From: Candidatus Methylomirabilia bacterium
Lineage (GTDB): Bacteria; Methylomirabilota; Methylomirabilia; Rokubacteriales; CSP1-6
NCBI GenBank assembly: GCA_041478145.1
Contig: JBGOVO010000002.1
Span: 1-42,229, forward strand
DNA length: 42,229 nt
Direction: 5' to 3'
The translations under genes and the position numbers were made by a program. The notes under the pieces are model-generated. The model did not search any database. It had not been told where the DNA came from and saw only the letters and a list, made by a program, of their open reading frames with translations. Position 1 is the first letter of the stretch; each line of letters begins with the position of its first letter. Below are positions 17,338 to 25,873 of the stretch, one piece after another.

Positions 17338-19830
17338 TCAGGCGGGGCGCGGCTCCCGGTCGAGCGCGGCGCGGACCTTGTGGCCGAGCGCGGCGGGCGT
17401 GAAGGGCTTCTGAATGAAGAGCGTGTCGGGATCCAGGACCCCGTGGCGAACGATGGCCTCGTTGGTGTAGCCCGACATGTACAGCACCTGCATCTCGGGC
17501 CGCAGCGGGCGCAGCCGCTCCACCAGCGCGCGTCCGCTCTGCCGCGGCATGATCACGTCGGTGAGGAGCAGATGGATCGACCCCGCGTGCCGCTCCGCCA
17601 TCAGCACCGCCTCCTGCGCGTCACAAGCTTGTAGCACCGCGTAGCCGCTGCCCTCCAGGATCTCCCGCGCGAGGTCCCGCACTTCCGGCTCGTCTTCCAC
17701 CAGCAGCACCGTCTCGTCCCCGCGCGGCGCCGTCGTCGCCGGAGCCGCCCCCGGGTCCGGCCCGGCGGCCAGCTCGGCGACTCGAGGCAGGTAGATCTTG
17801 AAGGTGGTGCCCCTGTCGACCTCGCTGTAGAGGCCAATGTCGCCGCCGCTCTGCTTCACGATGCCGTAGACGGTGGCGAGACCCAGGCCGGTGCCCTTGC
17901 CCGGCTCCTTGGTGGTGAAGAACGGCTCGAATACCCGCGACCGCGTCTGCTCGTCCATTCCTTCGCCGGTGTCCGAGACCGCCAGCAGCACGTAGGGCCC
18001 GGGAGGGACGGCGACGTGGCGGCTCGCGTAGGCCTCGTCCAGCTCTACGTTCGTGGTCTCGATGGTGAGGTGCCCGCCCTGGGGCATGGCGTCGCGAGCG
18101 TTGACGACCAGGTTGACGATGACCTGCTCGATCTGGCCCGGGTCGGCCTTGACGCGGCCGAGGGCGTCTCCCGGTGCCACCGCCAGATCGATGTCCTCCC
18201 CGATGAGCCGGCCCAGCATGGGCTCCATCGCGGTGACCACCGCGTTGAGATCCAGCACCTGCGGCTGCAGCACCTGCTTGCGGCTGAAGGCCAGGAGCTG
18301 ATGGGTGAGGGCCGCCGCTCGATCCGCGGTGGTGCGGACGAGGGTGGCGTCGCGGTGGATCGGCTCCTCCGGACGGAGGCGCGAGATGATGAGCTGCGCC
18401 CGTCCCGCGATGACGGTCAGCAGATTGTTGAAGTCGTGGGCGATGCCGCCGGCGAGCCGCCCGATCGCGTCCATTTTCTGGGACTGGCGGAGCTGCTCCT
18501 CCAGGCGCCGGCGCTCGCCGATGTCCTTGAGCACTCCCAGCGTGCCGACCACCGCGCCCGCCGCGTCTCGCAGCGTGGAGATCGACGCGCTGACCTCCAC
18601 GCGCCGGCCGTCCTTGGCGAGGAAGCCGGTCTCGTAGCTCCGTAGCGGGTCCTCCAGAGCCAGCCGCTGCTTGACGGCTCGCGCTTCCTCCAGGCCTCCC
18701 GGATAGAGGCTGGCGACGGCGGTGCCGATCACCTCCTCGGCGCGGTACCCGAACATCGCCTCGGCGCCGTGGCTGTAGTAGGTCACCCGCCCCGGCCCGT
18801 CGGTGGTGATGATGGCGTCCGGCGAGTTCTCGGTGATCGACTGCAGGAAGTCGCGCGCGTCGCGGATCTCCCGGTACAGCGCCGAGTTCTCGAGCGCCAC
18901 CGCGCCCTGGCCGACGAAGGCCGCGAGCAGGGCCAGCTCGTCCTCCGTATACGTGCGGCCAGCCACGTCCCCGAGGCTCAGGACGCCGATGACGCGATCA
19001 CCGGCCTTCAGCGGCACCGCGAGTACCGAGCGGAAGCCCTCGGCGCGCGCCCGGTCGGTCGCCCAGGCCGGCAGGTTGCTCCTCGGATCGGCGAGCACGT
19101 CCGGGGTCCAGACGCTGCGCTCCTCGGCTACCGCGCGGCCCACCGTGCCTTCGCCCAGCCGCACGGTCCGCCCGTGCCACTCGGCCGGATCGCCGACGCC
19201 CGCGGCCGCGATGCACACGAGCTGGCCCGCGCCCCGATCGAGCCGGTAGAGCGTGGAGTGTCGGGCCGCGAACACCCGGACGACCGAGGTCGCGATCTGG
19301 CGCGCCACCTCCGCCGGATCGAGCCCCCCCGCCAGCTCCCGGCCGGTCTCGATGAGCGCGGCCGCCGACATCTCGGTGCGGCGGCGGGCCGTGATGTCGG
19401 AGTGGGCGACGACGGCGCCGCCACCCTCGAGCGGCGTCGCGGTGAGCATGAACCAGCGGGGGTCTTGGAGCCCGTGGCTGGCGTAGTCCAGCGTGAAGCT
19501 CGGCAGCTCGTGGCGGAGCACGCGCGTGATGCCCGCCACCGCCCGCGTGCCCTGCGGGCAGCCCGCCATCCCTCCGTCGCGGCATATCGCGAAGTAGTTC
19601 TGCCCCACGCCCTCCGCCACCGCGGGGCCCGCGCCATTCTCCCGGCCGAAGCGCCGCCACGCTTCGTTGGCCGCCGCGACGTCGCCGCGCTCGTCCACGA
19701 TCACGGTCATGGCGGGCAGCGCATCGAGCAGCAACCGCCCGGGGCCGCCCGTCCACGCACCCGGGGTCGCGGGGCCCGCCGCCGCGCCGGCCGAGGTCAG
19801 GCGAACCGCTCCGGGGCCGACGGTGCTCAC
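17338..19830 (-). CDS. Cytoplasmic hybrid sensor histidine kinase (PAS-GAF-PAS-HisKA-HATPase_c-REC)
   Basis: H-box [15 protein letters not shown]-box [12 protein letters not shown]-boxes DTGEGMD and GTGLGLA, and a REC domain [10 protein letters not shown]...[10 protein letters not shown] take the GTG at 19830, which overlaps the upstream stop (GTGA). The track ORF extends further into the upstream gene. Confidence 0.85.
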
Positions 19831-25193: not shown

Positions 25194-25873
25194 GGCTCGA
25201 TCTTCTTGCCGCCGTAGCCTCCGGCGACGTCCTGGTCCGCGTTCCATCTGACCCAGGTCGCCTCGAGCGCGTCGACGGTCAGCTTGCCGGGTGGTCCGGG
25301 CATCCCGGCCGCGGGCACGAGCACCTCCTGCGGACCCGTCAAGGCTCGCTCCCACTGCCGATCCGGCCCGGCGCACACCGCGGCCCCGTGATGGACCTGC
25401 ACGAGGAGGGAGCCGTCCGGGTTTCGCCTCAGACCGACCCCGCTGCCGCGGACGGTGACGACGGCGGGACCCGCGCGCACCTCGACGTGAGTCGTCGCGG
25501 GGCTGCCGGGCATCACCGCGATCCAGAGCCAGCCGTTATCCAGTCTGACGCGGGTCGGCCCGGGCGCGGCGCCGCTCTCGGCCGCGAGCAGCGCGAGTTG
25601 AGAGCGCGAGCCCAGCCGTAAGACCTGACCGCTGGCGGTCCGGAGCGTGACTCGCCCCCCGACCTGAGTCCGCACGCTGTCGCCTTCACTCAGCTCGGCT
25701 CGGAGCGCCGCGGATGCCCAGGCCGGCGTGTCCTTCTTGTGCAGCTCGGCGGTCCCGCCGAGCGTGACGATCTTGGCTGGCAGCTCATTCGGCTGAGCCC
25801 ACCCCGGAGGGCTGGAAAGGCCGGCGAGGAAGGCGGCCCCAGCCAGCACGGCCGCTCGCGCGATCTTGGGCAC
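25190..25873 (-). CDS. Secreted FecR-domain protein
   Basis: GTG start at 25873, 7 nt after GGAGG. The signal peptide is VPKIARAAVLAGAAFLAGLSSPPGWA/QP. The FecR-like beta pattern is LSEGDSVRTQVGGRVTLRTASGQVLRLGSRSQLAL. Confidence 0.65.
   Translation of the reverse strand: MPKIARAAVLAGAAFLAGLSSPPGWAQPNELPAKIVTLGGTAELHKKDTPAWASAALRAELSEGDSVRTQVGGRVTLRTASGQVLRLGSRSQLALLAAESGAAPGPTRVRLDNGWLWIAVMPGSPATTHVEVRAGPAVVTVRGSGVGLRRNPDGSLLVQVHHGAAVCAGPDRQWERALTGPQEVLVPAAGMPGPPGKLTVDALEATWVRWNADQDVAGGYGGKKIEP

Follow-up and report, generated by a model that had tools for sequence, protein, structure and literature searches.

The window analysed here, i.e. the whole stretch of 42,229 nucleotides from contig JBGOVO010000002.1 (assembly GCA_041478145.1), has ~70% G+C, and its closest relatives are metagenome-assembled genomes (MAGs) labelled Candidatus Rokubacteria or Methylomirabilota. 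The subject of this analysis is a set of six genes encoding a FecR-domain protein, a hotdog-like protein and an NtrC-type activator, followed after a gap of 245 bp (22707-22951, minus strand) by those of a stand-alone HTH_8 protein, a seven-transmembrane (7TM) sensor and a hybrid histidine kinase (HK1). The listing of open reading frames (ORFs) and Pfam placed all six genes on the minus strand, together with the gap and a sigma-54 promoter lying in it (P1). An earlier note on this DNA, made from its letters alone, had described the same genes, overlaps, gap and TGGCAC-N5-TTGC element, and all of them were found where it had put them; its domain assignments and the tight coupling of the genes (ATGA, 4-nt and GTGA junctions) were likewise borne out. 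To begin with the activator (22952-24346, minus strand), its gene starts after a 4-nt gap from the hotdog gene and encodes a REC-AAA+-HTH_8 sigma-54 enhancer-binding response regulator, with Pfam scores of 238 bits (PF00158), 116 bits (PF00072) and 43 bits (PF02954). Both the GAFTGA loop (at 23701) and the Walker A motif were present, and the residues DD...D52...T...K of the REC domain, including the phospho-acceptor Asp, were readable in the translation. By its domains and motifs, this protein is a bacterial enhancer-binding protein of the NtrC family, and it was the sole GAFTGA protein in the 42-kb window. Moreover, it scored under every NCBIfam equivalog cut-off (459.7 bits vs. 714 for AtoC, 433 vs. 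558.6 for NtrC) and, on these scores, is not an orthologue of any named regulator (AtoC, NtrC, ZraR etc.).

P1 (TGGCACcagccTTGC, 22759-22773, minus strand) is an exact -24/-12 element of the form TGGCAC-N5-TTGC, lying ~50 nt upstream of the ATG of the HTH_8 gene, which has a ribosome-binding site (GGAGGAGG) ahead of its start codon. Two exact occurrences of this motif were observed in the window, compared to 0.02 expected. Orthologous loci were gathered from metagenomes and from the species-representative genomes of GTDB, and TGGCA(C/T)-N5-TTGC was kept in all 17 distinct gaps upstream of HTH_8, with the GG and GC elements invariant in 17/17 while the five spacer bases varied. In total, P1 was found in 22 loci, and it was also kept in the species-representative genomes with HTH_8. 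Because the exact match lies far above expectation and its elements were kept across a variable spacer, P1 is, as judged from these alignments, a real sigma-54 promoter, and the promoter that the earlier note had read in the gap was thereby upheld.

Phylogenetic footprinting, i.e. the alignment of the 17 orthologous gaps, revealed three conserved blocks besides P1. The first of them was a dyad of the form CYATRG-N8-CYATRG (CTATGGCGtcgcCGCCATAG, 22911-22930, minus strand), a candidate enhancer (upstream activating sequence) located ~135 bp upstream of the -24 element, which would be a typical enhancer distance. This dyad occurred once in the window and once per locus in 34 loci, 20-30 bp past the stop codon of the activator gene, and it was not found in loci without the P1 promoter. 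The conserved half-sites and the variable spacer between them point to a protein-binding site rather than an RNA hairpin. The second block, a CCAAGTA...GGAAA box between the dyad and P1 (22821-22836, minus strand, ~-75), is a candidate second site or a site for a bending protein. The third block was a conserved GGGCAG box just downstream of the -12 element (22738-22748, minus strand), which could be an operator overlapping P1 or an element of the 5′ untranslated region; this box and TTGCCC of the -12 element make up an inverted repeat, and the box was deleted in two loci (L014 and L022). Furthermore, one short metagenome contig (L024) presented P1 and the dyad twice, in opposite orientations (2130-2281 and 3506-3655), which may reflect an inverted duplication or a chimeric assembly.

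The gene downstream of P1 (22335-22706, minus strand) encodes the stand-alone HTH_8 protein of 123 amino acids (aa), matched by PF02954 with 38.7 bits (cut-off 22). Its layout comprises a conserved N-terminal peptide (MST[LVI]EAVxPWIS), a variable linker with many Pro, Ala and Arg residues, and a three-helix DNA-binding domain, and the N-terminal motif (~13 residues) was present in both clades. The last 58 aa showed 71% identity to the C-terminus of the activator, with a nearly identical helix-turn-helix in the two proteins (RTNYTTLHAKMKRYGIS in HTH_8 vs. RTDYTTLHAKMKRYGIS in the activator). A single change between the paralogues was fixed in every genome, namely RTDYTT in the activator vs. 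RTNYTT in HTH_8, and this D-to-N replacement falls at the start of the recognition helix, at a position that corresponds by alignment to Fis Asn84, which we take to be DNA-contacting in Fis-DNA structures. The ratio of nonsynonymous to synonymous substitution rates (dN/dS) was 0.28 for the N-terminus, 0.41 for the linker and 0.23 for the C-terminus, with the reading frame kept through in-frame indels. In addition, the HTH_8 orthologues were closer to one another than to the activator paralogue, so the duplication is old. On this comparison, HTH_8 and the DNA-binding domain of the activator are paralogues that separated long ago, HTH_8 being kept under selection, and, given the near identity of the helix-turn-helix, action at the activator's own DNA site is a reasonable inference.

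With regard to known proteins of this size, HTH_8 aligned to residues 53-97 of Fis and to residues 47-90 of the NtrC DNA-binding domain (helices B-D). Like Fis, it is a small stand-alone HTH_8 protein in which helices B, C and D align; unlike Fis, it lacks the β-hairpin arm and helix A, carries the conserved 13-aa peptide and the linker, and lies behind a sigma-54 promoter. Its score against the Fis equivalog NF001659 was 19.5 bits (cut-off 99), and a score so low, together with the lack of the N-terminal arm and helix A, indicates that HTH_8 is not Fis. The comparison also bears on the proposal that HTH_8 works as a positive architectural cofactor, which would bend the DNA between enhancer and promoter like Fis or IHF and raise activation in a feed-forward manner. 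A Fis-like fold, the conserved AAGT box between the dyad and P1, and the 14-bp spacing of the half-sites, presumably similar to the ±7 G/C positions of Fis sites, are in line with such a role. However, a helix-turn-helix that is nearly the same as that of the activator leads one to expect competition for the same site, and the parts of Fis missing from HTH_8 count against the proposal as well, which we hold to be quite improbable.

The operon that starts with HTH_8 ends with the gene of HK1 (17338-19830, minus strand), whose start lies in a GTGA overlap with the stop codon of the sensor gene. Pfam resolved HK1 into PAS-GAF-PAS-HisKA-HATPase-REC, with both the H-box and the REC domain intact, and the protein is soluble, having zero hydrophobic segments. 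A terminator-like GC hairpin followed by a T-run (17172-17189, minus strand) closes the operon, between convergent genes. Hybrid kinases usually signal through a histidine phosphotransfer (Hpt) protein. No Hpt was detected by Pfam in HK1 or in the second hybrid kinase of the window (HK2, described below), and no Hpt-like motif appeared in the six-frame translation of the window; the earlier note, which had counted one sigma-54 activator and no Hpt here, was right on both. An Hpt gene could be located elsewhere in the genome. Between HTH_8 and HK1 lies the gene of the membrane sensor (19827-22307, minus strand), a 7TM-3xGAF protein of 826 aa with a Cys-rich C-terminal domain (Cys4).

To follow this arrangement among related genomes, loci were retrieved by a search anchored on the hotdog gene, their components were tabulated, and a tree was built from the hotdog and activator proteins. 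The flanks were syntenic throughout, formed by the gene of an enoyl-CoA hydratase at one end and by that of a convergently oriented S49 peptidase at the other, while the content after the activator was variable. HTH_8, sensor and HK1 were all present in the window, in L047, L053 and L066 and in many metagenome contigs; L056 had HTH_8 and the sensor, the contig ending inside the sensor gene. The commonest form had HTH_8 and HK1 without a full-length sensor (L046, L049, L050, L052, L054, L055, L057, L059, L060 and L061), HTH_8 coming before HK1 in most related genomes. Moreover, HTH_8 appeared alone in L048 and L051, and nothing followed the activator in L044 (a 5.4-Mb contig), L045 and the outgroup L063, while L040 had the FecR-hotdog pair and no activator. 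The dyad, P1 and HTH_8 were either present together or absent together and, when present, always followed the 3′ end of the activator gene, and every orthologous HTH_8 operon recovered sat directly downstream of the activator with HTH_8 as its first gene. Thus, this variable content delimits a tight unit formed by the activator, the dyad, P1 and HTH_8, of which HK1 is usually a member and the sensor an optional one. What follows the activator varies by presence or absence between identical flanks, and the ‘self-contained’ island of the earlier note was accordingly abandoned; its neighbourhood was conserved in related genomes, but distant homologues of the sensor lacked an NtrC or HTH_8 neighbour. 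In particular, sensor homologues at 40-48% identity had no such neighbour, and their neighbourhoods were not conserved.

The same table bears on whether the gene order reflects nothing more than local synteny, kept within a shallow clade without any functional tie between upstream and downstream genes. This would agree with the wider flanks, which are syntenic too (DctPQM, SIR2, NUDIX, S49 peptidase, luciferase-like, PilZ and polyhydroxyalkanoate (PHA) genes), and with the other contexts in which the distant sensor homologues occur. Nevertheless, the joint gain or loss of dyad, P1 and HTH_8 at one fixed place and the derivation of HTH_8 from the activator itself make mere synteny very improbable. 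As a side observation from this survey, Rokubacteria-type loci at 80-86% identity were found in several species-representative MAGs labelled Dormibacterota, Nitrosotalea, Acidoferrum, Deferrimicrobiaceae, Limnocylindria and Verrucomicrobiia (L046, L048, L053, L054, L057 and L060), odd labels that are likely explained by mis-binned contigs.

The reading that we prefer is that of an accessory sigma-54-dependent feedback module which, in a Methylomirabilota/Rokubacteria clade, adjoins the gene of an NtrC-type activator on its 3′ side and by which the activator would drive its own kinase and a modulator consisting only of a DNA-binding domain; its probability is put at about 50%. According to this model, the phosphorylated activator would bind the dyad and fire P1, and the induced HK1 would return phosphate to the REC domain of the activator, closing a positive feedback loop in which HK1's own REC domain might serve as a sink or a gate. 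In turn, the induced HTH_8 would occupy the same dyad or form mixed dimers with the DNA-binding domain of the activator and so limit or time the response as negative feedback, and its N-terminal peptide, held on a flexible linker, might dock a partner. Where present, the 7TM-GAF3-Cys4 protein would add a membrane or ligand input via its zinc-finger-like Cys4 output domain.

Such a system may be likened to the autoregulation of NtrBC at glnAp2 to which a brake similar to PspA is added, except that this brake copies the DNA-binding domain of the activator. With NtrB/NtrC at glnAp2 (glnA-ntrBC), AtoSC and ZraSR it shares an activator of the REC-AAA+-HTH_8 type, an enhancer ~100-150 bp upstream of a GG-N10-GC promoter and, presumably, the induction of two-component genes by the activator as positive feedback. 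Unlike in those systems, however, the kinase gene alone is found downstream of the sigma-54 promoter and that of the activator is not. The kinase itself is a soluble hybrid of the PAS-GAF-PAS type carrying REC, and the first gene of the operon encodes a paralogue with no other domain than the DNA-binding one. The likeness to PspF/PspA and HrpS/HrpV would be that the activator induces a small protein limiting its own activity. PspA and HrpV, in contrast, are proteins not related to the activator that target its AAA+ domain, whereas the small protein found here duplicates the DNA-binding domain of the activator, so that its site of action would be the DNA site or the dimer interface. Among eukaryotic microproteins, the Id proteins and LITTLE ZIPPER, which poison their parent transcription factors or compete with them, are comparable as truncated paralogues under the presumed control of the parent factor. 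Literature searches retrieved no description of stand-alone HTH_8 partners or of a DNA-binding-domain-only paralogue for bacterial sigma-54 activators, and the arrangement has been seen so far in one clade. If the model is true, a compact feedback design would be at hand, in which a copy of the activator's DNA-binding domain and the kinase are both under the activator's own promoter. Furthermore, the natural deletion series (full, without sensor, HTH_8 alone, nothing) is a ready comparative test of the contribution of each part.

Several observations weigh against the feedback model. HK1 is a hybrid kinase of the type usually needing Hpt, and none was seen in the window. The activator occurs without the whole module in L044, L045 and L063, so it would have other targets and another kinase. 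Conservation is shallow, being confined to one clade with syntenic flanks, and both the 14-bp spacing of the dyad half-sites and the protein that binds the dyad are putative. Moreover, the conserved N-terminal peptide on its flexible linker suggests that HTH_8 would be more than a competitor or passive decoy; the decoy proposed in the earlier note stands as far as the derivation from the activator's DNA-binding domain is concerned, but a pure decoy is too simple for a protein with a selected N-terminal peptide. Finally, another sigma-54 promoter, also conserved and with a hybrid kinase of its own, lies 9.5 kb away.

Some of these same facts would fit a circuit in which HTH_8 is the real output regulator, a small Fis-like factor under the control of HK1 and/or the Cys4 sensor through its N-terminal peptide (e.g. 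by docking or membrane sequestration), its place next to the activator reflecting only its origin by duplication, and HK1 signalling via its own REC domain together with an unlinked Hpt and regulator. The purifying selection on the N-terminal motif and linker, the fixed D-to-N change at a presumably DNA-contacting position, a hybrid kinase devoid of Hpt and the activators that lack the module all speak for this circuit, as do the REC-Cys4 regulators described below, which elsewhere adjoin hybrid kinases with Hpt. However, a sigma-54 promoter with an enhancer-like dyad requires some enhancer-binding activator, a role for which the vicinity offers no candidate other than the parent of HTH_8; besides, HTH_8 stands without kinase or sensor in L048 and L051. 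On balance, HTH_8 as the output of the circuit is considered unlikely.

The second sigma-54 promoter (P2, 35420-35434, plus strand) is again an exact TGGCAC-N5-TTGC, located 30 nt upstream of the gene of a GGDEF-EAL protein (35464-37218, plus strand), which is followed by that of the GAF-GAF hybrid kinase HK2 (37206-40181, plus strand), both assigned by Pfam. P2 was conserved in 13 related loci, including the module-less L044 and L045, and the GGDEF-EAL and HK2 genes were syntenic in related genomes. The earlier note had held the HTH_8 operon to be the only gene set here visibly needing sigma-54, a statement that P2 contradicts, and it had paired HK1 with the activator by exclusion, an argument that fails with a second conserved promoter and a second hybrid kinase in the window. 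The conserved blocks upstream of P2, namely a palindrome (GACGAAAATCGTC), an AT-rich box (ACATTTTGTAAG) and TTATCAGCCGCTTAGCC, were unlike those at P1, no enhancer motif common to both promoters was found, and the P1 dyad was absent from the P2 region. Consequently, it cannot be said that one activator serves both promoters, and the idea that it demonstrably does so was dropped for want of a shared enhancer motif.

These data also concern the possibility that the ancestral circuit of the activator is the GGDEF-EAL/HK2 operon at P2, with cyclic di-GMP (c-di-GMP) as output and HK2 as cognate kinase, the HTH_8 module being a later, dispensable add-on with a modulating role. P2, GGDEF-EAL and HK2 were conserved near the FecR-hotdog-NtrC genes, including in both module-less loci that reach this region (L044 and L045). 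A PilZ-domain protein is encoded just beyond the module (14490-15428, minus strand), past the S49 peptidase and luciferase-like genes, which is another point for this ancestry; this protein and the GGDEF-EAL gene under P2 are both hints of c-di-GMP signalling in the neighbourhood. Still, neither the P2 region nor any other part of the window contains a further copy of the P1 dyad, the blocks conserved at the two promoters differ, and further sigma-54 activators may well exist elsewhere in these genomes, all of which leaves an ancestral circuit at P2 decidedly unlikely.

Of the membrane sensor, Pfam recognised only the three GAF domains and neither the 6-7 hydrophobic segments nor the Cys-rich tail, in accordance with the earlier note, which had seen no recognised output domain in it. 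Its N-terminus had no Pfam match even at E≤10, and one 45%-identical relative (P0037) has a precomputed match to PF07695 (7TMR-DISM_7TM). The distant homologues at 40-48% identity carry two to five GAF domains. The C-terminal Cys4 domain (19827-20024, minus strand) consists of a coil followed by LPICSYCxKIRxDxxYWxQIExYxxxHSxAxFSHxICPxC, in which the four Cys and the Pro are invariant and the His and Trp near-invariant. A word-index homology search with the 65-aa tail gave short proteins only and was replaced by an exhaustive profile search of 1.84 billion cluster representatives (50%-identity clusters), resulting in 24,267 matches at E≤1e−3, of which 19,814 had E≤1e−10. Among the 148 matches listed (P0131-P0278), Cys4 was usually near the C-terminus, and ~40 proteins had two copies. 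Out of 78 carriers scanned, 30 had PAS, 21 REC and 8 GAF domains, with MASE6, HAMP, Cache, CHASE3 or PocR in others. Cys4 thus lies C-terminal to PAS, REC or GAF domains, where an output domain normally is, and on this placement it occupies the output-domain position in signalling proteins.

Eight further metagenome matches were REC-coil-Cys4 response regulators of 204-222 aa (L027, L029, L030, L031, L033, L034, L035 and L038). The REC-Cys4 gene abutted or overlapped that of a hybrid kinase in four of the five loci examined, and three of these four kinases had Hpt. REC-Cys4 and PAS/GAF-Cys4 proteins share with the sensor the same C-terminal coil and CxxC...HxxCxxC domain in output position; unlike in the REC-Cys4 proteins, Cys4 is fused here to a 7TM region and three GAF domains, without REC. 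Searches with the Cys4 tail and the 7TM region in Pfam (E up to 10), NCBIfam and PDB sequences returned noise only, and literature searches by motif string and keyword found no paper on the Cys4 domain; HalOD2 and TackOD1 (PMC5847659) are different domains. Two AlphaFold2 models reached mean confidences (predicted local distance difference test, pLDDT) of 67.0 and 72.8, the better one showing a β-hairpin knuckle and a helix, so that the modelled fold resembles a treble-clef zinc finger. Foldseek found nothing significant for these models in the PDB, the best matches being zinc-binding regions of Nmd3 (E>2). The matches to the Cys4 tail suggest that two-component and one-component signalling share a very abundant output domain, and a function assigned to it would annotate tens of thousands of regulators.

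A more far-reaching joint reading, of which we remain rather doubtful, would make HTH_8 a sigma-54-induced microprotein with only a DNA-binding domain, regulating its parent at the enhancer or the dimer interface, and Cys4 a widespread unannotated zinc-binding output domain with a large REC-Cys4 class beside hybrid kinases. In that case, capture of the conserved HTH_8 peptide, or of the kinase, by the sensor Cys4 could depend on a ligand and thereby determine what amount of HTH_8 is left to oppose the activator.

Shortened forms of the sensor were also observed, as in-frame deletion derivatives that keep the first few residues and the Cys4 tail. These included a soluble GAF-Cys4 protein (L054, 12787-13577) and derivatives of ~75-113 aa (P0110, L026 at 959-1294 and L028 at 5712-5939). 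Moreover, in L036 and L037 the sensor N-terminus was seemingly joined to the C-terminal part of the kinase. These deletion and fusion forms could be real deletions or assembly artefacts.

Upstream of the activator, the first operon starts with the gene of the FecR-domain protein (25190-25873, minus strand), a protein of 227 aa matched by PF04773 with 37.5 bits (cut-off 24). Its signal-peptide-like N-terminus suggests a secreted protein. Apart from the FecR domain, features of a FecR-type anti-sigma factor were not recognised, as the neighbour lists contained neither an extracytoplasmic function (ECF) sigma factor nor a TonB-dependent receptor, and the protein starts with the signal-peptide-like segment instead of a cytoplasmic anti-sigma domain. 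A scan for the sigma-70 consensus upstream of the FecR gene found no promoter. The next gene (24351-25193, minus strand) overlaps the FecR stop codon as ATGA and encodes a hotdog-like (MaoC/4HBT-like) protein of 280 aa with at least 1167 homologues. Its weak Pfam matches covered only the N-terminal half (24.8 bits vs. a cut-off of 27 for MaoC, and 20.6 vs. 20.6 for 4HBT), and the similarity between the two halves was not significant (hhalign E=0.034, probability 1.5%). A ‘double’ hotdog, as the earlier note had called it, is plausible from the size of the protein, which fits, but neither the weak matches nor the comparison of the halves bears it out. For neither the hotdog nor the FecR protein did sequence searches of the PDB yield a usable relative.

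The FecR and hotdog genes invariably occurred side by side, also where the activator was missing downstream (L040), and the two form a translationally coupled pair (L040 at 1528-3035, L042 and L044), an odd couple of a secreted FecR-domain protein beside a cytoplasmic hotdog protein. Rfam returned zero RNA families on the window. Finally, positions 1-1959 (minus strand) encode a cytochrome P450 fused to a flavodoxin domain, cut by the window edge, which may be a self-sufficient P450 of the BM3 type and whose neighbours are carboxylesterase, acyl-CoA and PHA-metabolism genes.

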